Source: Blastocatellia bacterium (GTDB lineage Bacteria > Acidobacteriota > Blastocatellia > UBA7656). Taken from it: a stretch of 64,000 nucleotides of DNA. Where the stretch lies: positions 5,357 to 69,356 of the forward strand of contig DATFWY010000099.1 of NCBI GenBank assembly GCA_035258805.1, given 5' to 3'. This document shows, piece after piece, positions 42,973-62,575 of this stretch. Made by a program: the position numbers and the translations under genes. How positions within the stretch are numbered: position 1 is the first letter of the stretch; each line of letters opens with the position of its first letter. The notes beneath the pieces were generated by a model. The model was not told the DNA's origin and did no database searches. It worked only from the letters and a program-made list of their open reading frames with translations.

Positions 42973-42982
42973 GGATGGCCGA

Positions 42983-43242: not shown

Positions 43243-44709
43243 TCACGCCAAAATCTCCCGCACCGCCTCCCCGTGCACGTCCGTCAGCCTAAAATGCCTC
43301 CCCTGAAACTTAAACGTGAGCCTCTTATGGTCCACGCCAAGACAATGCAGAATCGTAGCCTGCAAGTCATGCACGTGCACCGGATCCTTAACAATGTTGT
43401 ACGAGTAATCATCGGTCTCGCCGAATGTCAGACCTCGCTTGATCCCGCCTCCCGCGAGCCACATTGCAAAACATCGTGGGTGATGGTCGCGACCATAGTT
43501 GTTCTCAGTTAGCTTACCCTGACAGTAAACCGTTCGCCCAAACTCACCACCCCACACCACAAGCGTGCCATCCAGCATGCCGCGCTGCTTCAAATCAAGT
43601 ATCAGCGCCGCCGAAGCCTGATCTGTGCCTTTACACTGCAGAGCAATGTCGCGAGGCAAATCATTGTGTTGGTCCCAGCCTCGGTGGTACAGCTGGATGA
43701 ACCGAACGTTGCGCTCCGCCAGGCGCCGCGCAAGCAGGCAATTCGCGGCGTAAGTCCCCGGCTTCCGCGAATCTGGGCCGTACATCTCAAAGATATGTTC
43801 CGGCTCCTTCGAAAGATCCATCAAGTCTGGCACTGATGTCTGCATTCGATATGCCATCTCATATTGCTGGATTCGTGTATCGATCTCGGGGTCACCGTAT
43901 GATTCGGCTTTGATCTTATTCAAGCTCATCACTGCATCCAGCATCTGGCGTCTGGTCGTCTTGTTGATCCCGGGCGGATCGGCAAGATAAAGCACTGGCT
44001 CGCCGCTCCCGCGAAACCTGACTCCCTGATAGCTCGATGGCAGGAAACCTGCTCCCCATAAGCGCGAGAAAAGCGGTTGGTCCGTATTAATCGCATTGGC
44101 AACCGAGAGCAACACTACGAATGACGGCAGGTTTTGGTTTTCACTTCCTAACCCATAGCTCACCCACGATCCGAGACTTGGACGCCCGGGCTGTTGGCTC
44201 CCGGTTTGTATGAAGGTGATCGCCGGATCGTGATTGATCGCTTCGGTATTCATGCTTCTCACGATCGTAATTTCGTCGACGATTTTCGCGGTGTGAGGAA
44301 GAAGCTCACTGAGCCAGGATCCTGATTGCCCGTGCTGGCTGAATTTAAAAAGAGAGTTGACCACCGGCAGCGAGCTCTGCCCCGAAGTCATGCCCGTAAT
44401 TCGCTGACCCATCCGAACCGATGCTGGAAGCTCGGTACCGTGAAAGCGACTGAGCGCCGGCTTGTAATCGAACAGATCCATTTGTGAGGGCGCACCGGAC
44501 TGATGAAGGAAGATGACCCGTTTCGCCTTCGGGGCGAAGTGTGGAAGGCCGGTCAGTCCGCCAGTTTTCGGATCTCTGTCATTTTGAGTATCTGCAAACA
44601 CTGCCGGCTTAAGCAGTGAAGCGAATGCGGCGACACCAATGCCAGTGCTGGCAAGTCCAAAGAGTTGCCGCCGCGTCAGCGTGAGTTCGAGCTCCCGTTT
44701 GAGATCCAT
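43243..44709 (-). CDS. DUF1501 domain protein (sulfatase-like, Tat-exported)
   Basis: Tat motif TRRQLFGLASTGIGVAAFA. DUF1501 architecture. Sits 23 bp downstream of the DUF1553 gene, the usual pairing. Confidence 0.85.
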   Translation of the reverse strand: MDLKRELELTLTRRQLFGLASTGIGVAAFASLLKPAVFADTQNDRDPKTGGLTGLPHFAPKAKRVIFLHQSGAPSQMDLFDYKPALSRFHGTELPASVRMGQRITGMTSGQSSLPVVNSLFKFSQHGQSGSWLSELLPHTAKIVDEITIVRSMNTEAINHDPAITFIQTGSQQPGRPSLGSWVSYGLGSENQNLPSFVVLLSVANAINTDQPLFSRLWGAGFLPSSYQGVRFRGSGEPVLYLADPPGINKTTRRQMLDAVMSLNKIKAESYGDPEIDTRIQQYEMAYRMQTSVPDLMDLSKEPEHIFEMYGPDSRKPGTYAANCLLARRLAERNVRFIQLYHRGWDQHNDLPRDIALQCKGTDQASAALILDLKQRGMLDGTLVVWGGEFGRTVYCQGKLTENNYGRDHHPRCFAMWLAGGGIKRGLTFGETDDYSYNIVKDPVHVHDLQATILHCLGVDHKRLTFKFQGRHFRLTDVHGEAVREILA

Positions 44710-44732: not shown

Positions 44733-47700
44733 TCACTCTCTGGTTATTGTCTCGTCCAGATTCAAGATGGCACTCGCTAAGATCGTCCAGGCAGCGAGCT
44801 CAGACGGGTTGAGACGTGCATCACATTTCGATTCGCCGACTGACAACAAATCCGACACGGCTTTCTTATCTCCACGGTAGCGGCTCAGTTGTTGGTCGAA
44901 CAAAACCTGGAGTACCTGGCGCTCCTTCGCGTTCGGAAGTCTTGATGTTGCTAGTCGAAAAGCAAAATTTATGCGGCTCTGAACATCTCTTCCGCCCTCA
45001 GTCATCGTGCGCTGCGCTAAGTGTCGTGCCGCTTCGATGTAAGTGGGGTCGTTCATCAGAACGAGAGCTTGTAATGGAGTATTGGTTACCGCTCGACGCG
45101 CGGTGCATTTCTCACGATCCGGTGCATCAAAGGTGACAAGCTGAGGTGGTGGAACCGTTCGCTTCCAGAATGTGTACATGCTCCGGCGGTACAGATCTCG
45201 GCCGGTGCTCTGCGTGAACGATTGAGCGGAGAACCCGTCGCCGAACGCCAGCTCATCCCATAATCCCTTCGGCTGGTAAGGAAATACGCCAGGTCCACCG
45301 ATATCCGTGTTAAGCAATCCGCTTATTGCTAAGGCGTTATCGCGAACGGTTTCCGCAGAGAGTCGCATTCGCGGTCCACGTGCGAGCAGCCGGTTCTCTG
45401 GATCCTTCGCCAACAAATCCGGACTGACGAGTGATGATTGCTGATAAGCTGCAGAAGTTACAATCAGGCGCTGCATCGATTTCACATCCCAGCCGTTGCG
45501 AATGAACTCCGTTGCGAGCCAATCCAGCAGTTCCGGATGGAACGGCGGCTCACCCTGCATGCCGAAGTTCTCAGAGGTCTTTACGATTCCGGTGCCAAAA
45601 TACATCTGCCAGTAACGGTTGACGGTGACGCGCGCCGTCAAAGGGTGATCTGGTGATACAAGCCACTTTGCCAGGCCTAGTCGATTGATGGGTGCGTTTT
45701 GCGGGTACGACGAAAGCACGGCGGGGACGCCAGGAGAGACCTTCTCATTCTGGTTGCGGTAATCGCCTCGACCAAGAACAAATGTCTCCCGCGGCTTCTC
45801 GAGTTCGGACATTATCATTACGGTTGGAATCGTCTTTTCCAGAGACTCTTTTTGTCGTCGCAGGTCCTTCAAATCTGCATAGGCTTCTCGGAATGCAGCC
45901 GGCGCTTCATACGTTAAGAAGTAGTCGCGGACCCGCGCATCGTCTTCCTTTGATCTCTTTCCAGACACGCCAGCAAGAATCGTCTGAATCGGGTACCGGA
46001 TCGCTAGCTCCTCAGTTTCGCTGTTATCGAGCGATCTCTTGTACAGCCGTAAATCATCAATGTTCCCGCGGAATGGTCCTCCTAAGTTCTTGTTGCCAAT
46101 CTGCAGCTCGGCATCGTTCACAATCGTGCCCGAGAGACTGTCCTGAGCCACATGGGTTTTCGCGAGCTTGCCGTTTAGGTAAAGGTGCAGACCGGCCGCT
46201 TTCCCGGAGCCGTCATAAGTCAAAGTAATGTGATACCAGTCTCCCAGCGTAAGCCGCTCAGTCGTTTTTATTTGGATGCTGTTATCGGGCCAGTTAGAGG
46301 TTAATCTGATAGTCAGATGCGCGGCGCGTTTTTGAATACCTACGAGCTCGTGATCATCCAAAAGAAACTCATAACCTCGCCGAGTTGAAGGGTTGTCAAT
46401 TTTCTGAAGAACTGCGATGGGAGTATTGCCGTTCCCCCGCATCCAAAACGCGATAGTAAATTGATCCTTCTCAGCAAAGTTTCCAACGCGGCCAAAACTT
46501 ATATGTGAGTAGCCATCGAAGCTGATGGACTTTCCGACTTGTCCGGCACCGAACGTCGGGTCGCCACTCAGAGTCCGGCCCTGCTGATAGCGGCCAGACA
46601 CGTCCGAGAGACTGCCGTCTAACTCGTAGTGGGCAGTGATTCCACTTACGAGTGACTTTGCCGATTTGTCAACAAATCCCTTCTCCCATTGTTCCTGAGA
46701 CGCCACAACTTCTTTTCCGTCCAGCGCAGTCTCCTTGCCTTTTATGGCTGAACTCAACTGGTCTGATTTGGTTTTCTGCTCGGATGTTGGAAGCGCCAAA
46801 AAGGGCTTTGCATTACCTGTTCTTCCATCGAGCCCCTCTTCGGAAATTGTGTTGAAGAATGCGAAGAATTGATAGAACTCTTTCTGCGTGATCGGATCGT
46901 ATTTGTGGCCATGACAACGCGCGCAACCCAAGGTCGTGGCCATCCATACGTTTGAGGTCGTTTCAACGCGATCGACAACATATTCGACCTGGTACTCTTC
47001 TGGTATAGCTCCGCCTTCAAAATTGATCATGTGATTTCTGTTGAACCCGGAAGCTATCTGTTGCTCGACAGTCGCATTCGGTAAGAGATCGCCTGCAAGC
47101 TGCTCGATTGTGAACTGATCGAATGGTAGATTTCGGTTGAATGCACTGATGACCCAATCGCGCCACCGCCACATATCACGATGACTGTCGATGTGATAGC
47201 CATGCGTATCGGCGTATCGCGCCAGATCAAGCCACTGCATGGCCATTCGCTCACCATAATGCGATGAGCTCAGCAGTCTATCGACCTGCTTCTCGTACGC
47301 GTCAGGCGCGGTGTCCTTCAAAAAAGAATCTATCTCTGCCGGCGTCGGCTGTAGGCCGGTCAAATCGAGGCTAACGCGGCGAAGCAGCGTCGCCATATCG
47401 GCTTGTGGTGACGGGTTCAGACCCTCGCGCTCAAGTCGTTCCAGGATGAAATTATCGATCGGGTTGCGAAGCCACGCGGTGTTTGCAACTCGTGGAGGCT
47501 CAACGCGCTTTGGAGGCAGGTAGGCCCAATGCGTTTCCCATTTAGCGCCTTCATCAATCCAGCGTCGGAGAAGCTCTATCTGATTGGCGGTGAGGCTTCG
47601 ATCAGAGCCTGGAGGCGGCATGCGCATCTCTGGTTGAGTTGCGGTGATACGTTTGATCAAACGGCTGTTCGAAGAATCGCCAGGACTTATTACGCCAGCC

Positions 47701-47909
47701 TTGGCGAATGCGCCCTGCTTGGTGTCAAAACGAAGGCCAGCCTTTCGCTGCCTGTCGTCGGGACCGTGGCATGCGAAACAGGTGTCAGAGAGGATCGGGC
47801 TGATATCGCGATTGAAGTCGACGGAAGGTTGTTTCTTATCCTGTGCGAGGACTGCACAGCAGATCGCCGTTACAACGATTCCAACCAGCGATATCTGTCG
47901 TCTCGGCAT
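44733..47909 (-). CDS. PSCyt1/DUF1549/DUF1553 (PSD1) protein with central concanavalin/LamG-like domain
   Basis: CFACHG (CxxCH) close to the N-terminus. DUF1549 and DUF1553 blocks (CARCHGHKYDP). Probable start MPRRQISLVGIVVTAICCAVLAQD at 47909. The track ORF extends to 48044. Confidence 0.85.
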   Translation of the reverse strand: MPRRQISLVGIVVTAICCAVLAQDKKQPSVDFNRDISPILSDTCFACHGPDDRQRKAGLRFDTKQGAFAKAGVISPGDSSNSRLIKRITATQPEMRMPPPGSDRSLTANQIELLRRWIDEGAKWETHWAYLPPKRVEPPRVANTAWLRNPIDNFILERLEREGLNPSPQADMATLLRRVSLDLTGLQPTPAEIDSFLKDTAPDAYEKQVDRLLSSSHYGERMAMQWLDLARYADTHGYHIDSHRDMWRWRDWVISAFNRNLPFDQFTIEQLAGDLLPNATVEQQIASGFNRNHMINFEGGAIPEEYQVEYVVDRVETTSNVWMATTLGCARCHGHKYDPITQKEFYQFFAFFNTISEEGLDGRTGNAKPFLALPTSEQKTKSDQLSSAIKGKETALDGKEVVASQEQWEKGFVDKSAKSLVSGITAHYELDGSLSDVSGRYQQGRTLSGDPTFGAGQVGKSISFDGYSHISFGRVGNFAEKDQFTIAFWMRGNGNTPIAVLQKIDNPSTRRGYEFLLDDHELVGIQKRAAHLTIRLTSNWPDNSIQIKTTERLTLGDWYHITLTYDGSGKAAGLHLYLNGKLAKTHVAQDSLSGTIVNDAELQIGNKNLGGPFRGNIDDLRLYKRSLDNSETEELAIRYPIQTILAGVSGKRSKEDDARVRDYFLTYEAPAAFREAYADLKDLRRQKESLEKTIPTVMIMSELEKPRETFVLGRGDYRNQNEKVSPGVPAVLSSYPQNAPINRLGLAKWLVSPDHPLTARVTVNRYWQMYFGTGIVKTSENFGMQGEPPFHPELLDWLATEFIRNGWDVKSMQRLIVTSAAYQQSSLVSPDLLAKDPENRLLARGPRMRLSAETVRDNALAISGLLNTDIGGPGVFPYQPKGLWDELAFGDGFSAQSFTQSTGRDLYRRSMYTFWKRTVPPPQLVTFDAPDREKCTARRAVTNTPLQALVLMNDPTYIEAARHLAQRTMTEGGRDVQSRINFAFRLATSRLPNAKERQVLQVLFDQQLSRYRGDKKAVSDLLSVGESKCDARLNPSELAAWTILASAILNLDETITRE

Positions 47910-48271
47910 GTCCTTTTCATGTCGGGAGAGTGCAGAAAAGGAAGGTCCCTCCCGGCCACGCAAGGTTACGCCACATATGAGCAGATCGCAATCGCACTGA
48001 TGATGCTTATAGTTTCTGTCTATATCCCTCATCGTGCCTGCCATTTCGGTTCATACACACCTAGTTAGTCTTGATGCGGTAGCCTGCAGGCGAGAGGGCC
48101 AAGCTGTTTTGTACGGCATGACGAGCGAGAACGAATAAATTCGTTACTACGTGACAGCACACGGCACTCGAATTTACCTGTCTTTAATCCTACAATGTCG
48201 CCGTCAAAGCCGGACAGTGCGGGCACAAGCAATAAAACTTATTCCGAGCTTGAGGACTAAACAGAACTACG

Positions 48272-49162: not shown

Positions 49163-49951
49163 ATGGCTGAATTTGATCGAGCACATCGCATTTTCGTCAG
49201 CTATATCGACAAATCGCGCGAATACTATCTCGCTCGTGGCTATGCGAATCCTTACCAGTGGGCCCACTATGAGGATGCCCCGTTCGCTACGTTGATGAAA
49301 CCGCTCAGAGAATGCCGAGTAGGTCTGGTCACTACCGCAGCTTTAAACGAAGAGACTGCGAAGATAAAACGAGTTTACAGTTCTACCACAACTCCGCCGC
49401 CGGATGAGATGTACACAGAACACCGGTCCTGGGACAAGAAAGCGACACACACTCGCGACGTAGAGTCTTTCTTACCTGTTCGTCGGGTATCCGAGTTCGC
49501 TGCCGACGGACGAATCGCGAGCATTTCGCCTCGTTTTTACGGCGCGCCCACTGACTTTAGTCAGCGGCGCACGATCGAAGGGTATGCGCCGTCGATTCTC
49601 GATCTATGTCGCGCTGACTGTGTGGATGTTGTGCTCCTCGTTCCTTTGTGACCTGTTTGTCATCAGACCGTGAGTCTGGTATCTCGGCATCTTGAGACAA
49701 ACGGCATACCGACGGTGGTGATCGGGTCGGCGAAAGACATCGTCGAGCAATGTGGTGTGGCGCGATTTGTATTCAGCGACTTTCCGCTTGGCAATTCTTG
49801 CGGGAAACCGTACGACGCGACGATGCAAAGGGCGATTGTTGGAATGGCGCTTGACCTCGTGGAGACGGCCCGATTTCCACGGACTACAGTACAGACTCCG
49901 TTTGCGTGGGATTCCACGGGCGAGTGGCGGGTCGAATATATGAAGCTTTAA
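49163..49951 (+). CDS. Selenoprotein B homologue of the glycine/sarcosine/betaine/D-proline reductase family (GrdB/PrdB-like). In-frame UGA (Sec) at 49649..49651.
   Basis: The track ORFs 49163..49651 and 49670..49951 are in the same frame, separated only by TGA. Read-through gives ...VDVVLLVPL-U-PVCHQTVSLVSRHLETNGIPTVVIGS... As recalled, this parallels the PrdB active-site block ...VDAVLLTAG-U-GTCHRSAVIVQR.IEEAGIPTIIVA. An upstream RVGLVTTAAL block matches KVALVTAAG. A stem-loop follows the TGA. Confidence 0.7.
49655..49702 (+). promoter_or_regulatory. Putative bacterial SECIS stem-loop starting 4 nt downstream of the UGA codon
   Basis: gtttgtc(49655-61)...gacaaac(49696-702) is a perfect 7-bp outer stem. 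An inner hairpin cagac-cgtga-gtctg lies within a 48-nt structure. Confidence 0.5.
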
Positions 49952-50122: not shown

Positions 50123-50632
50123 ATGATGAAACTGCAGCCGTTCACAAAATCCATTGCCACTTTAGCGGTGAGCATCACATTCCTTCTGTTATCCGTTGCT
50201 CTCGCTCAACAGGGTAACCATGATTTGCCCAATCCAAACCTAACGCCGGGTGCGACGCTCAAGCTTACTAAGGATGATTTGTGTGGACCAAACCGAAAGG
50301 AAGTTGAAGGAAATATACCTATCAGTCTAAAAACTAAAGTTTTCGAGCTATACAAAATCCGCACCGAAGCGACCGAACCTCACAATATCGATCACTTGAT
50401 TCCCGTCTCCTTAGGCGGTTCCAATGACATTGCGAATCTTTGGCCGCAACCTCTATCCGGCGAATGGAATTACAATAAGAAGAACGAGCTTGAACGGCGG
50501 CTTCGCAGGATGGTGTGCGGAGGTGAGCTCGAGCTGGCAACCGCACAACGAGAGATTTCTACTGACTGGGTGAGTGCGTATAAGAAGTATATAGGCGAGC
50601 CACGACGCCAAAAGATGAAGCAGCCACAATAG
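50123..50632 (+). CDS. Secreted small HNH-motif protein (putative nuclease)
   Basis: Signal peptide MMKLQPFTKSIATLAVSITFLLLSVALAQ. HNIDHLIPVSLGGSNDIANLWPQP matches an HNH/ENDO VII-type H-N-N motif. Confidence 0.5.
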   Translation: MMKLQPFTKSIATLAVSITFLLLSVALAQQGNHDLPNPNLTPGATLKLTKDDLCGPNRKEVEGNIPISLKTKVFELYKIRTEATEPHNIDHLIPVSLGGSNDIANLWPQPLSGEWNYNKKNELERRLRRMVCGGELELATAQREISTDWVSAYKKYIGEPRRQKMKQPQ

Positions 50633-50665: not shown

Positions 50666-52405
50666 TCACGCTTCATACAAATCCACCGCCGTCTGTCCCC
50701 TCGCAAAACGCTGCGCAGTCTGTGCCGCTGACTGACTACCCGCTCGCTTTCTCGCATCAGTCGCCCAACGGCTCAAACCGATCAACAGCTGGTTACGCGC
50801 CGGATGGCCCTCACACAATTTCCACTCGTCAAAAACAAACCTCAATGTGTGCACAAGATTCCAGCCGTTGTCGTCTTTGAGAATCGATTGGCCCATCTCC
50901 GACAACAGGCGATTGCCTGAATACCCGGAGTTCAAATACTCGCGTGTGTGCCTGCCAACTTCGCGTACCTGGACCGTCTCAATTGAATCAAGAACGGTCC
51001 GCAAAGCCGTGTCTTCATCTGGCGCATCCGATTTTGTGGCCGCTAGCGGATCGGTCAGAGAACGCGGAGTAATGTTGAGCCATCGATCGCTGAAAAATTG
51101 CCACGCAGCGTGATAGAGAGCCTTCGCGCCAATCTTGAACCCGCCGTACCGATATGCGGTTCGAACTGATGACGAGACTATCAACTCCTGACTAAGGCTG
51201 CCCCATCCCGGGTTGAGGTTCACTGGTGTCCGCGCCATTCGATCAGCGGCCAATAGAACCAACGTTGTTACAATCCGCTCAATCCCAACGCCTGCCTTGA
51301 GAGCATTCGAAATCGCATTGAACGTCTGGCTCAAATCCCCACTTACCAGACCTCTGGCGATGGCGTCCTCATCGTACGCAGTTCCGTCAGCGGCGGGAGC
51401 ATCGTCCAGCTCCTGGAGGAACGCGTCGATCGGTTCAAACATCTTCATCGCAGCTAGGCGGAGTTCTTCCGGAGCATCGCGACCTCTCCCGAGGATCTTT
51501 GCAGCAAGGTTGCAGACCAGTTCTTCCGAATTATCCCAGCCGAATTCCTCCAGCAATTCTGCCAGGAATTCGAAAAGCGGAAGGTTTTGAGTATGGCCTA
51601 AGAAAAAGGATTCGAGCGCACACTCATAGAGCAGCGGAAAAATCTCAGCATCGTGTCCACCAAGACGTCGAGCGGTGATCAAACATTTCTCGATCCCCTC
51701 CGGCGCCTTATCCGCAGTGAATACATGAATCCAATTTGCAAGCTTCTCCCAGGTAGTCGGAGGCGGCAACGGCTCAACTGCCGGGCGGTCTCCTGCAGTA
51801 CCGGAAGCACCGGTCGCCGCAATCATCAACGGAATCAGCCGGTCGTCAGGCGCGTAGTGACGCGCAACCTTGACCCCGTTAACCATCATCGCCAGCTCGC
51901 GCCCCGCTTCGTTTGGGCCACGTCCAGTGGCAACGTGTCTGCCGAGATGCCTAACAACAAGCTTCAGCGTGTCCTTCTCCGACACTCCTTTGGCCAGCAT
52001 GATGGCGATGGCTTTAGACAGCGTCCAGTTATCTGCGCTTAAAAGGCCTTCTTTTAGCAGGAGGAAATGCGCATCTTTGCGCCTGGATCCGCCGCTGCTC
52101 ACATCGATATAGATCGAGCCATCGCAAACCTCAACAGGAAATGTGTCGAGATCATCGCAGCCTCCGGTGAAGCAGCCGCCGCCTTTCATGTCGTAGCTCC
52201 ATCCGTGCCAGTCACAAGTAAGAACGCCGTTGCGGACTCGTCCACGTGTCAATGGATATCCCATATGCGGGCACTGGTTATCTGTGGCATAGATGTCGCC
52301 CTTGTGTTGAAAAAGCGCGATGCTGCGGCCGTCGACTTTGACGGCTTTTGGAGTGCCTTCGGGCACATCTTTGATTTCCGCTACCCTAACAAAATTATTC
52401 GACAT
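50666..52405 (-). CDS. Rieske [2Fe-2S] domain protein with large C-terminal helical domain of unknown function (paralogue 1)
   Basis: CPHMGYPLTRG...(17)...CDWHGWSYD is the CxH...CxxH Rieske motif. About 450 aa of unassigned all-alpha sequence follows. About 50% identical to the adjacent gene. Confidence 0.75.
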   Translation of the reverse strand: MSNNFVRVAEIKDVPEGTPKAVKVDGRSIALFQHKGDIYATDNQCPHMGYPLTRGRVRNGVLTCDWHGWSYDMKGGGCFTGGCDDLDTFPVEVCDGSIYIDVSSGGSRRKDAHFLLLKEGLLSADNWTLSKAIAIMLAKGVSEKDTLKLVVRHLGRHVATGRGPNEAGRELAMMVNGVKVARHYAPDDRLIPLMIAATGASGTAGDRPAVEPLPPPTTWEKLANWIHVFTADKAPEGIEKCLITARRLGGHDAEIFPLLYECALESFFLGHTQNLPLFEFLAELLEEFGWDNSEELVCNLAAKILGRGRDAPEELRLAAMKMFEPIDAFLQELDDAPAADGTAYDEDAIARGLVSGDLSQTFNAISNALKAGVGIERIVTTLVLLAADRMARTPVNLNPGWGSLSQELIVSSSVRTAYRYGGFKIGAKALYHAAWQFFSDRWLNITPRSLTDPLAATKSDAPDEDTALRTVLDSIETVQVREVGRHTREYLNSGYSGNRLLSEMGQSILKDDNGWNLVHTLRFVFDEWKLCEGHPARNQLLIGLSRWATDARKRAGSQSAAQTAQRFARGQTAVDLYEA

Positions 52406-52432
52406 TGCAGTCTCCTAAGAAAACCATTGTTG

Positions 52433-54184
52433 CTAATCTTCAAACGCCTCCACCGTTGTTCTTCCCTCCGCAAAGCGCATCGCGGTGTTAGTCGCAGATC
52501 CGCTGTTCTTGTTCGTTCGAATATCAGTAGCGTAACGCGCGAGCCCCACAAGCAACTGGTACCGCGCAGGATGAACGCTCTCTGACTTACTTAACAGCTC
52601 CCACTCCTCAAACACCGTGCGCAGCGTCGGTAAAACCTGGATGTTGGTGTCATCCCACAGCATCGATCGTCCAATTTCGTGCGCCAGGCGATCACCTGAG
52701 TATCCGGCATTCAGATAACCTAAGACCTGCGCGCCGATCTCCTGAACGTTAAGGGACGCGATTGATTTGAGAATTGTTCGCACCCCAGTATCTTCGTCGG
52801 CTACTTCGAGCCTGGTCGCATCGAGCGGTTCGGACAAAGGCCGAAGCGGTATATTAAGCCAGCGATCGGAGAACATCTGCCAGGCCGCCTGGAATGTCGC
52901 TTTTGCCGCCACCAAAACTCCGCCGTTTCGCTTAGCGGTACGCAGTGACGCTGCAAGGTTGAGTTCCATCGTCAGTGGTCCCCACCCCGCATCGACGTTC
53001 ACCGGCGTGCGAGCCATCCGATCCGCAGCAAGAAGTACAAAGCTAGTGATCAAGCGATCCAAACTCACGCCTTCTTTGAGAGCACCTGTAACAGCCTCAA
53101 ACGATTTCTGAATGTTTCCGCTAAGCAGCGCGCGAACCAAACCATCTTCGTCGTGATCGGGCTGGCCCGATGAGTAATCGCTGGACTCGATCGCCGGAAC
53201 AGAAGCCGCCATCAATTGAACGGCGTCTCGAAGAAAGCGTTCGGGCTCGCCTCGGCGACGGCCAATAAGTTTTGCGCCGAGATTGAAGACTACTTCGGAC
53301 GATCGCTCCCAGCCGAAGCTCTCGACGGCTTCAGCCAGGTAACCGAGCGCGAGCAGGTTATCTCCGTAACCCAGAAAGTGCGGTTCTACCGCACATTCGT
53401 ATAGCAATCGAAGAATCTTGTCTTGATAATGCAGATTGTGCGCTGTGAAGAGGCAGCGCTCTATCCTGCCCGACTGACCATCGTGAGAAAACATCCGCGT
53501 CCATTTATCTATGCTTTCCCAGGACACCGATCCAGGCATGGGCACCACGTTGAGGCGTTCAGCGGATTTCCCTGCAACCGAGCAGGCAGCCGTCGCCAAA
53601 ACCATCAGCCGATCGGCGTCTTGATAACGGCGCCCGACCTTGAGGCCGTTGATCAATCTTGAAAGCTCCGAGCCTCCTTCCGCATCTTCATCGCTTGCAA
53701 TGCGTCTGCCTAGGTGTCGGAGGATCATTTGCACGATCTCTTCCTCAGGAACATTGCCTCTGAGCAGCAGAGCGATGGCTTTTGAAATAGTCCAACGATC
53801 TTCGCTCAGCAGCCCCTCCCAGAGCAGGCGAAGGTGTTCGTCTCGGCGTTTGTACTGGAGATCACCGACATTAATCCAGACAGCACCATCGCGTACGTCC
53901 ACCGGAAAAATCTGAAGATCGTCACATTCCTTGTTGAAGCATCCGCCGCCTTCTAAATCGAAACTCCGTCCGTGCCAGTCGCAGGTGAGGATGCCATGAC
54001 GAATGGCGCCTCGGGTCAACGGGTAACCCATGTGAGGGCACTGGTTGTCGGTGGCGTGAATCCTGCCATCGACGTTGAAAAGCGCAATCGTGCGTCCCTG
54101 GTTGAGTTTTACTGCTTTAGCTTCACCTGGAGGAATCTCGCTCAGGCCTGCGACGCGTATCCATTCCGAGATAGGTTTGACCAC
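52433..54184 (-). CDS. Rieske [2Fe-2S] domain protein with large C-terminal helical domain of unknown function (paralogue 2)
   Basis: CPHMGYPLTRG...CDWHGRSFD Rieske motif, collinear with 50666..52405. Shared blocks include LLAADRMARTPVN and FSDRWLNI. Confidence 0.75.
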   Translation of the reverse strand: MVKPISEWIRVAGLSEIPPGEAKAVKLNQGRTIALFNVDGRIHATDNQCPHMGYPLTRGAIRHGILTCDWHGRSFDLEGGGCFNKECDDLQIFPVDVRDGAVWINVGDLQYKRRDEHLRLLWEGLLSEDRWTISKAIALLLRGNVPEEEIVQMILRHLGRRIASDEDAEGGSELSRLINGLKVGRRYQDADRLMVLATAACSVAGKSAERLNVVPMPGSVSWESIDKWTRMFSHDGQSGRIERCLFTAHNLHYQDKILRLLYECAVEPHFLGYGDNLLALGYLAEAVESFGWERSSEVVFNLGAKLIGRRRGEPERFLRDAVQLMAASVPAIESSDYSSGQPDHDEDGLVRALLSGNIQKSFEAVTGALKEGVSLDRLITSFVLLAADRMARTPVNVDAGWGPLTMELNLAASLRTAKRNGGVLVAAKATFQAAWQMFSDRWLNIPLRPLSEPLDATRLEVADEDTGVRTILKSIASLNVQEIGAQVLGYLNAGYSGDRLAHEIGRSMLWDDTNIQVLPTLRTVFEEWELLSKSESVHPARYQLLVGLARYATDIRTNKNSGSATNTAMRFAEGRTTVEAFED

Positions 54185-54348
54185 GGTTGTTACTCCTGAT
54201 CGGCTGTGGCGAATCTGCGATCGATGTCATCGCGCGGGCACACCAGACCAAGGTAGTGCCGAATGGGTTCGGAATTCAAATGATATTTGCGCAGGGCAAC
54301 CTCTTCTTACAGCTTGCATCTGAATGGCCCAGTAAGGAGGAGGTACAA

Positions 54349-56370
54349 ATGAAACGGAATTGGCGGTACGTCTGTCAGCTTCTCGTTGCAATCGCAACGA
54401 TCTCATTTCTCAGCTCTGCGAAGAGTCAGTCTGCCGGCGCCCAACAGAATCAACCTCCTGTTCAAGCGCTAACAGAAAAAGACAAAACTCTCTCACCCTA
54501 TTTCTTTGTTCAAGGGGATCCCAGCGTTGATCAATTGCCTCTGAAAGATACTAACGTGCAGATCGATGTTTCGGGAGTGATCGCGGATGTCGAGGTTCGG
54601 CAAACATACCGAAACGAGGGCTCGCGTCCGATTAACGCCCGCTATGTCTTCCCCGCCTCTACACGTGCCGCCGTTTATTCGATGCGGATGCGCATCGGCG
54701 ACCAGGTTGTAGTAGCCAAAATCAAAGAGCGAGAAAAAGCGCAGCAGGAATTCGAAAAAGCCAAACAAGAAGGCAAGAGCGCATCATTGCTCGAACAGAA
54801 CAGACCAAACGTGTTCTCGATGAGTCTCGCCAATATAATGCCCGGCGACCAGGTTGAAATAGAACTTCGTTATACCGAACTGCTGATACCCACGGATGGG
54901 ATTTATGAAGTGGTCTTTCCTACAGTTGTTGGGCCCCGCTATTCTTCGCAACCTGAATCCCCGGCGGCCCAAACAGATCAGTGGGTTAAAAATCCTTATC
55001 TCCGCGAGGGACAGAAGCCAACCAGTGCGTTACATATTTCCGCCAGGGTTTCCGCGGGAATTCCTATTCAGGAGTTGACCTGTCCATCGCATTCGATCGT
55101 TCCCCAATGGCAGGGCCCGACGATTGCGCAGCTGCAAACGGATGATAAGGATTCGTCGCAGGGAAACCGTGACTTTATTTTGAGATATCGCCTGACTGGC
55201 GATCAGATCGCGTCAGGGTTGATTCTTTACCAGGGTCAAGATGAAAACTTCTTTCTCTACATGGCACAACCGCCGCGACGAGTTGCGAGCACAGAGATAC
55301 CCACAAGAGAGTATATCTTTGTCGTCGACGTGTCAGGTTCGATGGAAGGGTTCCCCTTGAATACGTGTAAACGGTTACTGCGTGACCTGATCGGGCAACT
55401 GCGACCTACCGATTTGTTCAACGTGGTCTTGTTCGCCGGAGACTCCACCGTTCTGTCGCCAAAATCGCTGTATGCGAACCAGGAAAACATCTCGAGCGCA
55501 ATCCGATTACTCGAACAACAGCGAGGCAGCGGAGGAACCGAGTTGCTCGCCGCGGTAAAACAAGCAATGAGCATCCCACCTCATTCCAGCGTGTCGCGCA
55601 GTGTGGTGCTTGTCACCGATGGCTATATCTCGGGTGAACAGGGAGTCTTTGACTACATTCACGAGAATCTGAATGAATGCAATGTCTTCGCGTTTGGGAT
55701 CGGAACTGCAGTAAACCGCTATCTCATCGAGGGTGTTGCAAAAGCGGGATTGGGAGAACCTTTCATCGTCACAAGCGAGGCTGAGGCTCCTGCAATAGCG
55801 GCTAAGTTTCAGGAATACATCCAGACGCCGGTGTTGACGGACATTAACGTCAAAACCAGCGGCTTCGATGCTTATGACGTGAACCCCGCCCACACCCCTG
55901 ATCTGTTCGCTGAGCGGCCAATAATTGTTTTCGGCAAGTGGCGCGGTCAGGCTACAGGTACGTTCGAGTTGAAAGGAAAGAACGGAAATGGAGATTACGT
56001 AACTCGTGTCGATGTCAACGGTGTTCAACCAGACGATGCCAATAGAGCGCTGCGTGATCTTTGGGCCCGATCGCAGATTGCTGAGCTCTCAGACTACGGC
56101 GCAAGCCATGTCGAACCCGAGCGAGTCAAAACAATCACAAACCTCGGGCTGAAATACAATCTGCTGACGCAATACACATCATTCATTGCCGTGCTTGAAA
56201 GTGTCACAAATACAGGCAGGCCTGCGCAGGATGTGAATCAACCTCTTCCGCTTCCCCTCGGAGTGACTGATATGGCGGTAGGAAGTGAACCTGAGTTGAT
56301 CTGGCTGATAAGCGCTTCCCTCGTTCTAGCGTTGATTATGTTCCTTCGCTACCGGCGGCGTTTTGTATGA
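54349..56370 (+). CDS. VIT domain + von Willebrand factor A domain protein with C-terminal PEP-CTERM-like sorting signal
   Basis: Signal peptide MKRNWRYVCQLLVAIATISFLSSA. VIT block DVSGVIADVEVRQTYRNEG. vWA MIDAS FVVDVSGSM. C-terminus ...GSEPELIWLISASLVLALIMFLRYRRRFV, which is a Pro/Glu motif, a TM helix and then an Arg cluster. The track ORF from 54187 carries a 54-aa upstream extension that is not accepted. Confidence 0.8.
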   Translation: MKRNWRYVCQLLVAIATISFLSSAKSQSAGAQQNQPPVQALTEKDKTLSPYFFVQGDPSVDQLPLKDTNVQIDVSGVIADVEVRQTYRNEGSRPINARYVFPASTRAAVYSMRMRIGDQVVVAKIKEREKAQQEFEKAKQEGKSASLLEQNRPNVFSMSLANIMPGDQVEIELRYTELLIPTDGIYEVVFPTVVGPRYSSQPESPAAQTDQWVKNPYLREGQKPTSALHISARVSAGIPIQELTCPSHSIVPQWQGPTIAQLQTDDKDSSQGNRDFILRYRLTGDQIASGLILYQGQDENFFLYMAQPPRRVASTEIPTREYIFVVDVSGSMEGFPLNTCKRLLRDLIGQLRPTDLFNVVLFAGDSTVLSPKSLYANQENISSAIRLLEQQRGSGGTELLAAVKQAMSIPPHSSVSRSVVLVTDGYISGEQGVFDYIHENLNECNVFAFGIGTAVNRYLIEGVAKAGLGEPFIVTSEAEAPAIAAKFQEYIQTPVLTDINVKTSGFDAYDVNPAHTPDLFAERPIIVFGKWRGQATGTFELKGKNGNGDYVTRVDVNGVQPDDANRALRDLWARSQIAELSDYGASHVEPERVKTITNLGLKYNLLTQYTSFIAVLESVTNTGRPAQDVNQPLPLPLGVTDMAVGSEPELIWLISASLVLALIMFLRYRRRFV

Positions 56371-57155
56371 AACTGAAAATGAGTGCGCGCTGGGTCGCAC
56401 AGAGTGCGGCGGTGCTGATCTGCGTTTTCGCTTTGAAGCAATATTATTCAACCGCGAGCGCAGATCAGCTTAAATGGATCCTGACGCCTACGACCGCATG
56501 CGTTGAGCTGTTCAGCGGCGAGTCGTTCCGGTTTGAATCTCATGCGGGTTACATAAGCGCGGATCATCGATTCCTGATCGCGTCGTCATGTGCGGGAGTT
56601 AATTTTCTTATCACCGCTTTTCTGATGCTTTCAGCAAGGAGGCTGCTGTTTGAGCCGCCGACCAGCGCGACCTGGTCATTCATCCCGGTCTCATTATTCG
56701 CAGCCTATGTTGTAACTCTGATTGCAAACACGACTCGGATCTTGATCGCGCTGAAACTCCAGGGAATTTCTGCGATTGATTCGCTGGATTCGAACCAGCT
56801 ACATCGATTAGAGGGCATCTTCATCTATTTCCTGTTTCTGACATTGTTGTTCCTGGTGAGCGAACGGAACAGTTCAGATGGACTCTACAGTGTGTTGCGA
56901 CGGTGCTTCCTTCCGCTGCTCGTATATTATTCGACGATGTTGGGTATACCGTTGTTAAACGGGTCGTACCGAGCAGGAAGGAATTTCTGGGAGTACGCTA
57001 CAGTTGTTTTTCTTGTGCCGGTGCTTGTTCTTTGCGGGCTTTGCGGGTGTTTGAGTGCTTACGCGCAGCTCACACCGCAATTCAGGCTTCCCGCAAAATC
57101 GCAAAGAACCGCAAAGCTCGCAAGGGAAGAAACGAATAAATTCGTTACTACGTGA
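56367..57155 (+). CDS. Exosortase/archaeosortase family protein (small)
   Basis: 262 aa polytopic membrane protein. SSCAGVNF resembles the catalytic ACSGxRS block and IANTTRILI resembles the NxxR(I/V) block. ATGA start overlaps the stop of the VIT-vWA gene by 4 bp. Its 3' end is formed by the AACGAATAAATTCGTTACTACGTGA repeat. Confidence 0.6.
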   Translation: MKLKMSARWVAQSAAVLICVFALKQYYSTASADQLKWILTPTTACVELFSGESFRFESHAGYISADHRFLIASSCAGVNFLITAFLMLSARRLLFEPPTSATWSFIPVSLFAAYVVTLIANTTRILIALKLQGISAIDSLDSNQLHRLEGIFIYFLFLTLLFLVSERNSSDGLYSVLRRCFLPLLVYYSTMLGIPLLNGSYRAGRNFWEYATVVFLVPVLVLCGLCGCLSAYAQLTPQFRLPAKSQRTAKLAREETNKFVTT

Positions 57156-59409: not shown

Positions 59410-59535
59410 GCAGAAAGCAGAAGGCGGCGGTGCTTTCCTACTGCCGACTGCGTTCTGCCGACTGCCTACTGCCGACTGCCTCCTGCCTCCTACGTTCTGC
59501 CGACTGCCTTCTGCCTACTGCCTCCTGCCTTCTGC
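59399..59535. repeat. GCAGTAGGCAG / CTGCCGACTGCCT direct and inverted repeat cluster between the dehydrogenase and PadR genes (terminator-like)
   Basis: gcagaaagcagtaggcagaaagcagaaggcgg is followed by cctactgccgactgcgttctgccgactgcctactgccgactgcctcctgcc. The related motif aagcaagtaggcagaaagtagctggcagtaggcag lies immediately after the stop codon at 11597..11632. Confidence 0.7.
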
Positions 59536-59579
59536 ATTCCTCCTTGCCATCCCTAACTCGCTTCTGGCATAGTTTCCCT

Positions 59580-59930
59580 ATGCCAGTTCGACGAGAGATC
59601 AGTCAGCGAGACGAAATTCCTCCCGGGACCCTCTACATGCTCATCCTGAAGACTCTCTCGCGCAGCGGCGAACTCCACGGTTACGAAATCGCCAACTCCA
59701 TTCAACAAATGTCCGGCGACGTGCTTCAGGTCGAAGAAGGATCACTCTACCCCGCCCTGCAACGAATGCTCCTCAAGGGCTGGGTCCGGGCCGAATGGGG
59801 CGTCACACCCGAAAATCGGCGCGCTCGCTACTATCGACTGACCACACTCGGGCGAAAAGAGCTTGAACTCGAGGTCTCCCAATTTCAACGCGTATTCGAA
59901 GCCATACAGCAGGTTCTGCGTCCCGCATAG
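59580..59930 (+). CDS. PadR family transcriptional regulator
   Basis: HGYEIANSIQQMSGDVLQVEEGSLYPALQRMLLKGWVRAEWG...RRARYYRLT. The track ORF from 59430 is an extension encoded by the GCAGTAGGCAG repeat, and ATG 59580 is preferred. Confidence 0.8.
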   Translation: MPVRREISQRDEIPPGTLYMLILKTLSRSGELHGYEIANSIQQMSGDVLQVEEGSLYPALQRMLLKGWVRAEWGVTPENRRARYYRLTTLGRKELELEVSQFQRVFEAIQQVLRPA

Positions 59931-59941
59931 CGAGGTGCCCA

Positions 59942-62575
59942 ATGAATTGGTTAAGCGAACTGGGAAGACGCTTACAGATGTTGCTCCGGCGCGATGAGTT
60001 CGACAGCGATCTCGAAGAAGAGATGAAGTTGCATATCCAGATGCGCGTCGACCAGCAGATCAAAGAAGGCGTTTCTGAAAAAGCCGCTCAAGCTGCCGCT
60101 CGAAGGCAATTTGGGAACGTCTTGTCACTGCGCGAGCAAAGCCAAGATGCATGGGGCTGGAGATGGCTCGAACAGCTCGTGCAGGACGTTCGTTATGGCA
60201 TTCGTACAATCTTTCGCGCACCCGGTTTCGCCACTATCACCGTTCTGACGCTGGCGCTTGGCATCGGCGGGACAACCGCGATATTCAGCGCCGTCTATCC
60301 CATACTCTTTCAGCCGCTGCCGTACCCAAATTCAGATCGCATAACTATGATCTGGGAGATTGGCCGCGAGGGAAAGCGTGACGAGGGTACCTTTGGAATG
60401 TATCGCGAGCTCGCGGAGAGAAACCAATCATACGACTCCATTGCAGAGATTAAGCCGTGGCAACCTACTATGACCGGGGTCGACCAACCCGAGCGATTGG
60501 ATGGTCAGCGTGTAAGCGCTACTTATTTCAAGGTACTCGGAATTGCGCCGGCCCTCGGCCGTGACTTCCAACAAAGCGAAGATCAACTCAACGGCGCCTC
60601 GGTGGCGATCTTGAGCGATTCGCTTTGGCGACGGCGCTTTGGCGCCGATCCCGATGTTGTCGGGCGTAAGGCAAGACTTGATGATAAGAGTTTTACCATC
60701 ATCGGAGTGATGCCGAATCGTTTTGAAAACGTTTTAGATCCAACCGCGGAATTGTGGACGACGCTCCAATACGATATGTCTCAAGGTCGAGCGTGGGGTC
60801 ACCATTTGCGAGCTGTTGGCCGGCTTCGTCATGACGTAACGATGTCCCAGGCGATTGCGGAATTAAATGAAATAGGTCAGGCCGTTCTTGAAGAGCAACA
60901 CCCAGAAACCTATCGTCAGGAAGTCAAGTTCCTGGCGATATCATTGCACGATGATGTAATTCGCGGGGTCAAGCCGGCCCTAATGGCGATTATGGCAGCT
61001 GTTTTATTGGTCCTGGTGATCGCTTGCGTGAACGTAACAAACCTGCTGCTCGCTCGGGGAGTGCACAGGCGTGGCGAGTTCGCCTTGCGCGCCGCACTCG
61101 GCGCAGGACGAGGCCGCCTTTTGCGACAACTCCTGACCGAGAGCTTGCTGCTTGCTGCATTCGGCGGGTTAGTCGGAATAATCATCGCCGATTTTGGTGT
61201 GCACGCGTTGGTTTCTTTGAGCCCGCCCGGATTACCGCGAGTAAACGCTATAGCGATCAATTACGCGGTATTCGTATTTGGAATCGCGATTACAACTCTG
61301 ATTGGCGTCGCGTTCGGATTGATTCCTGCGCTGCACGCATCCCGACGTGATCCTAATGGCGATCTTCAGTACGGATCGCCACGTTCCGCCGGAGGACACA
61401 GGCGCACGCGCAACTCGCTGGTAATCGTGGAGGTTGCATTGGCGCTCGTACTGCTGGTCAGCTCAGGACTGTTGCTGCGAAGTCTCCAACGATTGTTTGC
61501 TGTTGATACAGGATTTGACTCTTCGCGGCTGCTCACCATGCTTGTTCAAACCTCAACCATCCGTTTCTCGGACAAGGATGCGATAAATCGATTTTTCGAA
61601 CAGTCGCTTGAGGCGGTTAAACGGGTTCCTGGTGTATCCGCCGCGGCGTTCACCAGCCAGTTACCCATGAGCGGTGACAGCGATCTGTATGGGGTTCAGT
61701 TCGACCCTGTCCCTTTAGATGATCCGGGAGAGATTCGCGGAACCTTTCGCTACGCGATTAGTCCCGACTATCTGGAACTGATGCGAATACCTTTAAAGAG
61801 CGGACGGTATCTGGAAGAGCACGATGGATCGGATGCTCCTCTTGTAGCGGTGATTAGTGAGTCGCTGGTCAAGAGGCGGCTGAAGGGACTGGACCCGCTT
61901 GGGCAGCGTCTTCGCATAGGCACCGGGCCGCTTTACACCGTTGTCGGTGTAGTAGGCGATGTAAGACAGGTATCCCTGGCGCTATCCGAACCAGACGCGG
62001 TGTACACAACCGCGAGCCAGTGGAGATCAACAGACAATTCGATGTCGCTGGTGGTGCGAGCACGGAACGAAGCTATGCCTTCGGTATCGGACCTCCGTCG
62101 CGCAATTTGGTCAGTCGACAAAGACCAGCCGGTCTTGCGCGTTCGTACGATGGACGATCTGCTTGCGGCGTCGGCTGAGGAGCGTCGATTCGCTCTGATA
62201 GTTTTTGAAGCCTTCGCGGCGGCGGCATTGGTGCTCGCGGCGGCGGGTCTATACGGTGTGCTTTCGGGCAGCGTGGCGGAGAGAACTCGCGAGTTCGGCG
62301 TGCGTCTCGCGCTCGGCGCATCACGCGAAAGCATTCTCTCTCTGGTTGTTCGACAAGGATTAATTCTTACCGGTTTGGGAATAGCAATAGGTCTCGCGGG
62401 AGCGGTTGCTTCCAGTCAGGCGCTCGTATCGATGCTGTACGGGATAACGAGTTTAGATCCAGTTACATATTTTGGTGTGGTTCTGGTTTTGACTGTCGTG
62501 TCGATATTAGCTTGCGCGGTGCCGGCGTGGCGCGCGGTGAATGTCGATCCTGCAATAACGCTTCGGGCCGAATAA
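59942..62575 (+). CDS. ABC transporter permease, FtsX/MacB-like duplicated 'ADOP' family
   Basis: 877 aa. Collinear with 4534..7206 (blocks LQDVRYGIRT, VNVTNLLLARG, TESLLLA and two FtsX modules). Follows a PadR gene. Confidence 0.9.
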   Translation: MNWLSELGRRLQMLLRRDEFDSDLEEEMKLHIQMRVDQQIKEGVSEKAAQAAARRQFGNVLSLREQSQDAWGWRWLEQLVQDVRYGIRTIFRAPGFATITVLTLALGIGGTTAIFSAVYPILFQPLPYPNSDRITMIWEIGREGKRDEGTFGMYRELAERNQSYDSIAEIKPWQPTMTGVDQPERLDGQRVSATYFKVLGIAPALGRDFQQSEDQLNGASVAILSDSLWRRRFGADPDVVGRKARLDDKSFTIIGVMPNRFENVLDPTAELWTTLQYDMSQGRAWGHHLRAVGRLRHDVTMSQAIAELNEIGQAVLEEQHPETYRQEVKFLAISLHDDVIRGVKPALMAIMAAVLLVLVIACVNVTNLLLARGVHRRGEFALRAALGAGRGRLLRQLLTESLLLAAFGGLVGIIIADFGVHALVSLSPPGLPRVNAIAINYAVFVFGIAITTLIGVAFGLIPALHASRRDPNGDLQYGSPRSAGGHRRTRNSLVIVEVALALVLLVSSGLLLRSLQRLFAVDTGFDSSRLLTMLVQTSTIRFSDKDAINRFFEQSLEAVKRVPGVSAAAFTSQLPMSGDSDLYGVQFDPVPLDDPGEIRGTFRYAISPDYLELMRIPLKSGRYLEEHDGSDAPLVAVISESLVKRRLKGLDPLGQRLRIGTGPLYTVVGVVGDVRQVSLALSEPDAVYTTASQWRSTDNSMSLVVRARNEAMPSVSDLRRAIWSVDKDQPVLRVRTMDDLLAASAEERRFALIVFEAFAAAALVLAAAGLYGVLSGSVAERTREFGVRLALGASRESILSLVVRQGLILTGLGIAIGLAGAVASSQALVSMLYGITSLDPVTYFGVVLVLTVVSILACAVPAWRAVNVDPAITLRAE

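Follow-up and report, generated by a model that had tools for sequence, protein, structure and literature searches.

Few electron-transfer modules have been studied as thoroughly as Rieske proteins. To our knowledge, the fusion partners of the Rieske domain comprise a START-like oxygenase domain, flavoprotein reductases, and membrane anchors. Rieske ferredoxins are free-standing, ∼105–115 amino acids (aa) long, and encoded beside a reductase and an oxygenase. The alpha subunits of Rieske oxygenases (e.g., NdoB, KshA, CarAa, and SxtT/GxtA) begin with a Rieske domain and continue into a larger C-terminal START/Bet v1-like domain, which holds iron through a 2-His-1-carboxylate site. NirD, the small subunit of assimilatory nitrite reductase, has a Rieske-like fold in ∼105 aa and lacks a C-terminal domain. 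Here we describe two consecutive genes, rieA and rieB, from a 64,000-nucleotide stretch of a Blastocatellia bacterium contig (DATFWY010000099.1; hereafter the window, to which all coordinates refer). Each gene encodes an N-terminal Rieske domain followed by a ∼470-aa all-alpha domain. The two paralogs recur as an ordered pair across four phyla and belong to a much larger Rieske-helical family. They keep the family-wide core residues but have lost most of the putative metal-site residues of its main clade. We propose that RieA and RieB form an obligate heteromeric oxidoreductase, in which two Rieske clusters would exchange electrons with a remodelled helical pocket; we give this reading of the sequences roughly even credence.

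Anatomy of RieA and RieB

Both genes lie on the minus strand. The upstream paralog, rieA (52433..54184), encodes 583 aa from a GTG start and ends with a stop codon at 52433-52435. The downstream paralog, rieB (50666..52405), encodes 579 aa from an ATG start and ends with a stop codon at 50666-50668. The 27 bp between them (52406..52432, minus strand) contain a ribosome-binding site for rieB, TTAGGAGA, and a Shine-Dalgarno-like sequence lies upstream of both genes (AGGAG, 8 nt 5′ of the rieA GTG). We propose that the two genes are co-transcribed. BLASTP aligns RieA and RieB end to end over 582 columns (48% identity, 68% positives, E = 0), in agreement with a preliminary description of this stretch that reported two minus-strand genes of 579 and 583 aa with ∼50% identity. 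Public data contain each protein at 100% identity (RieA as P0121 and RieB as P0001), and the closest orthologues of the pair come from Acidobacteriota and Blastocatellia genomes.

The Rieske [2Fe-2S] domain spans ∼aa 7-108 of RieA (53861..54166, minus strand; ligands C49, H51, C68, and H71) and ∼aa 4-104 of RieB (52094..52396, minus strand; ligands C45, H47, C64, and H67). The motifs CPHMGYPLTRG...CDWHG are present in both proteins, and all four ligands are at least 95% conserved in each paralog (76 A-type and 80 B-type sequences). PF00355 matches RieB with 74.4 bits and RieA with 61.2 bits against a gathering cut-off of 20.3, confined to residues ∼5-92 (E 9e-17 in RieA, where PF13806 also matches at E 2.5e-13, and E 7e-21 in RieB). 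The canonical Rieske motif reported earlier for both proteins is therefore intact. An additional CxxxxC cysteine pair is conserved near the cluster, C78/C83 in RieB (at least 95%) and C82/C87 in RieA. Sequence matches in the PDB are limited to residues 1-105 and comprise Rieske ferredoxins and, for oxygenases, their Rieske portion. NCBIfam models likewise match the Rieske region alone, below threshold, and are those of Rieske ferredoxins and NirD. The structural model of RieB superposes on the BphA3, CarAc, and T4moC ferredoxins with target-normalised template modelling (TM) scores of 0.77-0.89, and the full-length model retrieves Rieske ferredoxins and oxygenase Rieske domains from the PDB and nothing else. 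No signal peptide, transmembrane segment, or hydrophobic segment was found in RieA or RieB (maximum 19-residue Kyte–Doolittle hydropathy, KD19, 1.06 and 1.48), and both proteins are predicted to be cytoplasmic and soluble. By sequence and model, the N-terminal domain of both is a bona fide ferredoxin-type (low-potential-like) Rieske domain, predicted to bind its cluster. By analogy with the ferredoxins, it would act as a one-electron carrier.

The rest of each protein is a single all-alpha domain, which covers ∼aa 114-583 of RieA (52436..53845, minus strand), where it matches the hidden Markov models (HMMs) of the family C-domain, and aa 110-579 of RieB (50669..52078, minus strand). Residues ∼110-580 of RieA and RieB match no Pfam or NCBIfam model, and the helical domain matches no PDB sequence. 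An AlphaFold2 model of the full-length protein, built from a 28-sequence alignment, has a mean predicted local distance difference test (pLDDT) of 82 and a predicted TM score (pTM) of 0.77. A model of the C-domain by itself (m9661dab9b592; pLDDT 86, pTM 0.87) contains 22 helices and zero strands, as expected from the all-alpha character first assigned to this region. Foldseek comparison of the C-domain model with the PDB returned nothing at E<0.001. Across Pfam, NCBIfam, PDB profile, and Foldseek searches we thus found no confident match to a characterised family, and the domain keeps its uncharacterised status. As a side observation, two uncharacterised giant-virus proteins of ∼280–310 aa in BFVD (A0A481Z919, from Pithovirus LCPAC202, and A0A6B9SX76) match part of the helical model with Foldseek probabilities of 0.89-0.97, poor root-mean-square deviation (rmsd), and scores comparable to that of the nearest PDB chain (8YXS, discussed below). 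These could be single-repeat relatives or chance all-alpha similarities.

Conserved pairing of RieA and RieB

To describe the distribution of the pair, we scanned one genome per species, which yielded 215 relatives, and kept the best 80 loci, plus one 4-Mb contig. Wherever the DNA upstream extends far enough (77/77 other loci), the B-type gene is preceded on its own strand by an A-type gene. Four loci seem to deviate; their contigs begin in or at the B gene. The loci belong to metagenome-assembled genomes from Acidobacteriota (Blastocatellia, Bryobacteraceae, and Solibacteraceae), Poribacteria, Latescibacterota, and Gemmatimonadota. Across these four phyla, A-type proteins are 55-78% identical to RieA and B-type proteins 61-83% identical to RieB. 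The two genes are 13-200 bp apart in 52 of 75 loci, and the gaps reach 6.4 kb. In ∼20 Poribacteria a same-strand ankyrin-repeat gene (∼420 aa) lies between rieA and rieB (loci L016, L019, L020, L027, L050, L053, L054, L057, L060-L067, L069, L074, L077, and L078). Ankyrin proteins are typical of sponge symbionts.

A neighbor-joining tree places the A and B proteins in two reciprocally monophyletic sister clades, each with the same lineage groups in it, and a small third clade (P0288, P0289, and P0339) as sister to A and B together. Reciprocal monophyly and matching lineage groups indicate an ancient duplication, both copies of which have been kept together since. The two copies are also equally conserved, with a mean top-residue frequency of 0.74 in the C-domain. 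Several fixed differences nonetheless set them apart. In RieB numbering, B-type proteins carry W69, Y71, G82, G237, K240, E314, and N513, where A-type proteins carry R, F, E, R, R, R, and T, respectively. The Glu/Arg difference at position 314 is a charge swap that is at least 95% conserved in each type. It is suggestive of the complementary change expected where a homodimer interface has turned heteromeric. His432 is present in nearly all A and B members. It is invariant in 80 B-type sequences and replaced by Gln in an acidobacterial A sub-lineage that includes RieA of the window, a pattern suggesting that this position may be under tighter constraint in B.

Strict pairing and order, reciprocal monophyly, equal conservation, and the fixed A/B differences together support a physical RieA-RieB heteromer. 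They strengthen the earlier proposal of a heterodimeric redox protein of unknown function. The same arrangement could be read as two independent isozymes, each a homo-oligomer with its own substrate, that are adjacent through shared regulation only. Tandem paralogs often diverge in specificity, the single-copy relatives described below work as one gene, and the poribacterial ankyrin insert and the gaps of up to 6.4 kb imply that tight translational coupling is not required. Independent isozymes, however, are usually lost or shuffled differentially. Here, 0/77 informative loci have one type alone, the order, A then B, does not change even between phyla, and the two types show matching lineage groupings under equal constraint. 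We therefore consider independent isozymes quite unlikely and favour an A-B heteromer.

A family of Rieske-helical proteins

RieA and RieB have many distant relatives. A phmmer search with RieB residues 110-579 against 1.84e9 representatives returned 254 clusters at 50% identity, and a profile of 15 C-domains found 4,859 clusters at 90% identity among 8,000 candidates scored. The preliminary description considered the helical domain to be shared only between the two proteins. This is true within the window, where family HMMs detect no other Rieske-helical member, whereas elsewhere the domain has thousands of relatives. Full-length distant relatives (22-28% identity) are ∼580-600 aa long, and 9/10 of those scanned have an N-terminal Rieske domain; the tenth, P0388, gave a 3keto-disac_hyd match only. 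Databases name these proteins ‘Rieske (2Fe-2S) protein’ or ‘nitrite reductase/ring-hydroxylating ferredoxin subunit’ (JGI).

The profile of the main clade of this family matches proteins in Chloroflexota, Poribacteria, Latescibacterota, and others. Comparison of the A/B and main-clade profiles with hhalign gives a probability of 100% and E 1e-41 over 457 columns. The core common to A, B, and the main clade (RieB numbering) consists of K131, D188, W225, E239, W290, R389, W401, R441, N444, Y490, D512, R546, and R566, among which K131, E239, R389, W401, R441, N444, D512, and R546 are at least 95% conserved in all three. On the strength of the phmmer and hhalign homology, the Rieske domain, and these core residues, we assign RieA and RieB to a family defined by a Rieske domain and a duplicated all-alpha domain. 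The same layout in distant members, the 4,859 clusters, and the hhalign homology further indicate that the architecture is fixed and widespread.

Main-clade genes are single-copy in 80/80 metagenome loci and three long contigs. The tandem occurrence proposed earlier as a check on homologues thus holds for the A/B clade and fails for the main clade. The main-clade gene has no conserved neighbour in the 80 loci; the best neighbour cluster occurs in 7/80, at varying positions. A full-text literature search returned no description of a Rieske all-helical architecture, a link between Rieske proteins and extracytoplasmic function (ECF) sigma factors, or a Rieske protein in connection with Poribacteria. 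What appears to be new, judging from sequence, is an undescribed partner domain on a Rieske protein, together with a conserved and probably heteromeric form of it.

Loss and gain of residues in the helical domain

When the main-clade profile is compared with itself, residues 8-198 align with 241-447 (probability 57%, E 1e-4), indicating that the helical domain arose by internal duplication; the A/B profile retains a faint echo in the same register. The repeat pairs H165 with H411, D168 with Q414, and H83 with H327. Among 220 main-clade sequences with a median pairwise identity of 47%, H165, D168, E406, H411, and Q414 are 100% conserved, K172, E131, and K24 99%, H301 (with Thr at +3) and H448 92%, and H158 90%. 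The invariant His/Lys/Asp/Glu/Gln set suggests a metal site at the pseudo-dyad of the duplicated domain. By analogy, the main clade may follow the same logic as the Rieske oxygenases, with a Rieske cluster feeding a metal site. Its members would then be self-contained Rieske-dependent oxidoreductases or oxygenases.

This putative site is dismantled in both RieA and RieB, except for E131, K24, and the acidic position E406. The A/B proteins carry D/N/E in place of H165, L/I in place of D168, D in place of E406, E/N/D in place of H411, P/S/H in place of Q414, Y in place of K172, T/R in place of H301, I/V in place of H448, and P in place of H158; E131 and K24 are kept. The A/B clade has also gained residues that are at least 95% conserved in both paralogs. 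In the helical domain these are D125, W127, T128, S130, W219, C241, C262, D388, M390, E407, R415, W435, E527, W528, Q539, and T549, and also H113, H153, H534, D345, and D550, which fall in columns unaligned to the main-clade model. The Rieske domain has gained the pair C78/C83. Several of the gained residues lie at or near former ligand columns: E407 adjoins the H301 column, R415 occupies the H310 column, C262 lies four residues before the H158 column, and C241 lies two residues after E131. Their placement fits remodelling of this region better than abandonment. In the A/B branch the main-clade set has given way to other conserved residues, Cys241, Cys262, Asp388, Glu407, Arg415, His432, and several Trp, in the same alignment positions or beside them.

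Two main-clade proteins, both singletons at the 90% level, carry additional domains. P0321 is a Rieske-helical protein fused to an ECF sigma-70 factor, and P0347 is one fused to a guanylate/adenylate cyclase domain. In a metagenome operon (L167, 1519..6885), an 843-aa ECF sigma-70–Rieske-helical fusion, in which the otherwise invariant H165 is replaced by Glu, is followed by genes for a SnoaL-like protein, a 196-aa protein of unknown function, and a canonical Rieske-helical paralog of 592 aa. Here too, and independently, a degenerate copy is paired with another member of the family.

The loss of the main-clade residues and these fusions bear on the main rival to an A-B oxidoreductase, a redox or oxygen sensor or regulator. 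Here the Rieske clusters would report the redox state, and catalytically dead helical domains would signal to an unlinked partner (e.g., a sigma factor, an anti-sigma factor, or another signalling protein). Loss of the His/Lys/Asp set from both paralogs is typical of pseudo-enzymes recruited for regulation, and the conserved C78/C83 pair beside the cluster could be a thiol switch. The sigma-70 and cyclase fusions point the same way, as does the sigma-fused copy whose H165 became Glu and which shares an operon with a SnoaL-like protein and a canonical paralog. The fusions, however, are singletons and come from another clade, and neither the A/B pair (81 loci) nor the main-clade gene (80 loci) has a conserved regulator, DNA-binding domain, or output domain beside it. 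In addition, cross-phylum identity of 60-80% over 580 residues and invariant buried-type polar motifs (e.g., AADRMARTP) are more like an enzyme or a tight complex. We regard the sensor as unlikely, though less so than independent isozymes or a mere electron carrier.

Proposed function of the pair

Flanking open reading frames (ORFs) of the 81 A/B loci cluster into lineage-level synteny only. The recurrent lineage-level neighbours are DNA polymerase I (PolA), pyruvate dehydrogenase E1, an acyl-CoA dehydrogenase, PhyH, a sulfite-oxidase-like gene, and the ankyrin gene. No neighbour is conserved across phyla beside the A/B pair in these loci, which argues that the pair is self-sufficient; the unit is the A-B pair itself. 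We also found no oxygenase conserved next to it.

We favour an oxidoreductase because cross-phylum conservation is very high, invariant polar motifs are many, and no signalling partner is linked. In the mechanism that we propose, RieA and RieB would assemble into an obligate heteromer that is soluble, cytoplasmic, and able to work without any other linked gene. The two Rieske clusters would pass single electrons to or from the remodelled pocket in the helical domains, and the role of the complex would be enzymatic instead of sensory. Several observations weigh against this proposal. No reductase or other electron partner is linked to the pair in any A/B locus. The metal-site interpretation of the main clade is drawn from residue conservation, and the loss of the candidate ligands in both paralogs would equally fit a non-catalytic sensor, scaffold, or carrier. 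Finally, the rare ECF sigma and cyclase fusions of the main clade hint at signalling.

The lack of linked partners is also in keeping with another alternative. RieA and RieB could be a dedicated two-cluster electron carrier, in effect an oversized ferredoxin, for a terminal enzyme encoded elsewhere, with helical domains for docking only. Such a carrier would account for a Rieske domain whose nearest counterparts are the ferredoxins of multicomponent oxygenases, for the loss of the putative metal site from the helical domains, and for the lack of partner genes nearby. A 470-aa docking domain with ∼30 clade-specific invariant polar residues, on the other hand, far exceeds the needs of known ferredoxins, and neither an oxygenase nor a reductase is linked in any locus. 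We judge a dedicated carrier very unlikely and return to the heteromeric oxidoreductase as the preferred reading.

The broader interest of the pair lies in its helical domain, which is confidently modelled. It lacks any annotated relative, yet thousands of proteins combine it with a Rieske domain, in soil and sponge bacteria that are abundant but have seldom been cultured well. Current annotation names cover one sixth of the protein. If the main clade consists of metallo-oxygenases, it would provide a new architecture for Rieske-dependent oxidation chemistry. The A/B pair would exemplify an enzyme fold that was duplicated, turned heteromeric, and stripped of its original ligands.

Genes flanking the pair in the window

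A gene for a VIT and von Willebrand A (vWA) domain protein (54349..56370, plus strand) is divergent from rieA. Its ATG start at 54349 is backed by the sequence and by a separate gene call (673 aa) on an identical contig. The divergent layout reported earlier is correct; the spacer, given as 165 bp, is 164 bp from this start (54185..54348), and presumably houses the rieAB promoter. The next gene, for an exosortase-like short membrane protein (56367..57155, plus strand; weak PF09721 match), overlaps the VIT-vWA gene by 4 bp, and the two are a possible sorting-system pair. The preliminary description raised shared regulation of rieA and the VIT-vWA operon through the spacer between them. We found no sigma-70 consensus match in the 164-bp spacer, and k-mer counts in 72 upstream regions revealed no common motif beyond close relatives. 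VIT-vWA adjacency, moreover, occurs in 0/81 other loci. As the arrangement is seen in this genome only, it gives no evidence of shared regulation, and the adjacency is incidental.

Several other genes of the window (the exosortase-like, HNH, PIG-L, and monogalactosyldiacylglycerol (MGDG) synthase genes) are likewise absent beside the pair elsewhere. We rejected a functional link to the VIT-vWA/exosortase genes: of eight window neighbours, only the PadR-MacB genes recur, at one locus. A PadR regulator and a MacB/FtsX-type permease are encoded at 59430..62575 (plus strand), at a distance of ∼5 kb from rieA and rieB. A single other acidobacterial contig (L001, 4501..7449) has PadR and MacB directly adjoining the Rieske pair, which makes the intervening VIT-vWA/exosortase/glycosyltransferase block look like an insertion in this genome. 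On the other side, a 169-aa protein with weak HNH endonuclease matches (50123..50632, plus strand) is convergent with the 3′ end of rieB, with 33 bp between the stops. Upstream of it lies a 162-aa ORF with no family match (49163..49651, plus strand). Neither is found beside an A/B pair elsewhere. We also considered and rejected a defence system, as PADLOC gave no hits for RieA, RieB, or four neighbours.

Other genes in the window

The window also holds PSCyt/DUF1501 pairs, MacB-type transporters, and a GH2 glycosidase and looks like an ordinary Acidobacteriota-type chromosome segment. Several genes are nonetheless worth recording. A 591-aa protein of the animal haem peroxidase family (23696..25471, minus strand; PF03098, E 1e-110) is a eukaryote-type member of the peroxidase-cyclooxygenase superfamily in an acidobacterial-looking chromosome. 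An 1103-aa planctomycete-type PSCyt1/PSCyt2/PSD1 protein with a Laminin_G_3 insert (44733..48044, minus strand) is followed by a 488-aa DUF1501 protein (43243..44709, minus strand); such DUF1549/DUF1553-DUF1501 pairs are common and uncharacterised. A PolX-type DNA polymerase with HHH, pol-beta thumb, and PHP domains (28533..30317, plus strand) adjoins a type IB topoisomerase (30351..31355, plus strand), and the PolX and bacterial type IB topoisomerase genes may form a repair gene pair. Two further proteins, of 640 aa (41086..43008, minus strand) and 487 aa (18514..19977, minus strand), match nothing in Pfam at E up to 1e-5.

Comparison with known systems

The Rieske ferredoxins are the closest match to the N-terminal domain. 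BphA3/BphF, CarAc, NdoA-type, and T4moC ferredoxins (PDB 2E4Q, 1FQT, 1VCK, and 1VM9) have the same fold as the N-terminal 105 residues (rmsd ∼2 Å), share the CxH-x16-CxxH pattern, and rank first among the sequence matches (E 1e-10 to 1e-12). RieA and RieB differ from them in the 470-aa helical fusion, the tandem duplication, the extra CxxxxC, and the lack of a linked reductase or oxygenase.

The alpha subunits of Rieske oxygenases have similar Rieske domains and the same order of parts, with the Rieske domain at the N-terminus and a larger domain behind it. The larger domain is START/Bet v1-like in the oxygenases and all-alpha in RieA and RieB, where it matches no model of the Ring_hydroxyl_A type. 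We rejected assignment to this group on two grounds. The proteins have no catalytic-domain match, alpha-subunit models matching the Rieske part only and far below their cut-offs, and no reductase or beta subunit is linked in the window or the 81 A/B loci. A bc1/b6f or arsenite-oxidase Rieske protein can be set aside as well, since RieA and RieB lack a membrane anchor, the disulfide-forming extra Cys in CPHMG/CDWHG, and partner genes (cytochrome b or molybdopterin subunit) in the window; AioB and PetC match them only marginally. Searches of Pfam, NCBIfam, and the PDB uphold the initial view that neither an oxygenase catalytic domain nor a bc-type partner is present. NirD is also rejected (TIGR02378, 51.2 bits against a cut-off of 74.65), with no NirB in the window or the loci, and the nitrite-reductase name given to the family by JGI mirrors the N-terminal domain only. 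RieA and RieB are thus not Rieske oxygenase alpha subunits, bc-type Rieske proteins, or NirD, as the defining features of each were sought and are absent.

The nearest structure to the helical domain comes from a different group of enzymes. The only PDB chain with a whole-domain TM score of ∼0.4 to the C-domain model is 8yxs_A (461 columns, prob 0.60, E 0.75, rmsd 8.8 Å). It is BruN, which belongs with BTG13, GedK, and PaD to the DUF4243 (questin-oxidase-like) family of atypical all-alpha non-heme iron dioxygenases. BruN binds its iron through four His residues and one carboxylated Lys (PMC11575538, PMC12173810), and the iron ligands in the family are H63, H166, H308/317, H386/394, and Kcx389/397 (PMC11575538, PMC11371914). 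The DUF4243 enzymes (BTG13 7Y3W, BruN 8YXS, PaD 8Z4Q, and GedK) are all-alpha and ∼450 aa long, and PaD has 22 helices (PMC11371914), the same number as the RieB model. Along the chain, their iron ligands are placed approximately like the main-clade invariant H165, H301 (Thr at +3), and H411. The DUF4243 His/Lys ligand set is missing altogether from RieA and RieB, whereas the main clade has candidate ligands, and the DUF4243 enzymes in turn lack a Rieske domain. BTG13 and PaD are not among the top 50 Foldseek matches of the C-domain model. The DUF4243 profile (PF14027) has no match in RieA or RieB (E up to 1) or in 15 main-clade C-domains (E up to 10), and none of BTG13, BruN, and PaD was retrieved when the PDB was searched with a profile. 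Against the 6,426 ORFs of the loci, the weak matches of this HMM are a transposase, a PhyH-HEAT protein, and an amidase. RieA and RieB are therefore not DUF4243 members, given the profile result and the lack of the ligands. DUF4243 nevertheless provides the only fold-level lead for the helical domain, a weak one drawn from the model.

This lead allows a more far-reaching comparison, which we hold to be doubtful. The Rieske-helical proteins could be a new class of Rieske-coupled all-alpha metalloenzymes that are distant kin of DUF4243 and whose ferredoxin-type cluster would supply a pseudo-symmetric His/Lys/carboxylate metal site. RieA-RieB would be the heteromeric offshoot of this class, either with a new cofactor or metal site based on Cys/His/Glu or as a redox-sensing pseudo-enzyme, and the pair would count among the core genes of sponge-symbiont Poribacteria and soil Acidobacteriota.

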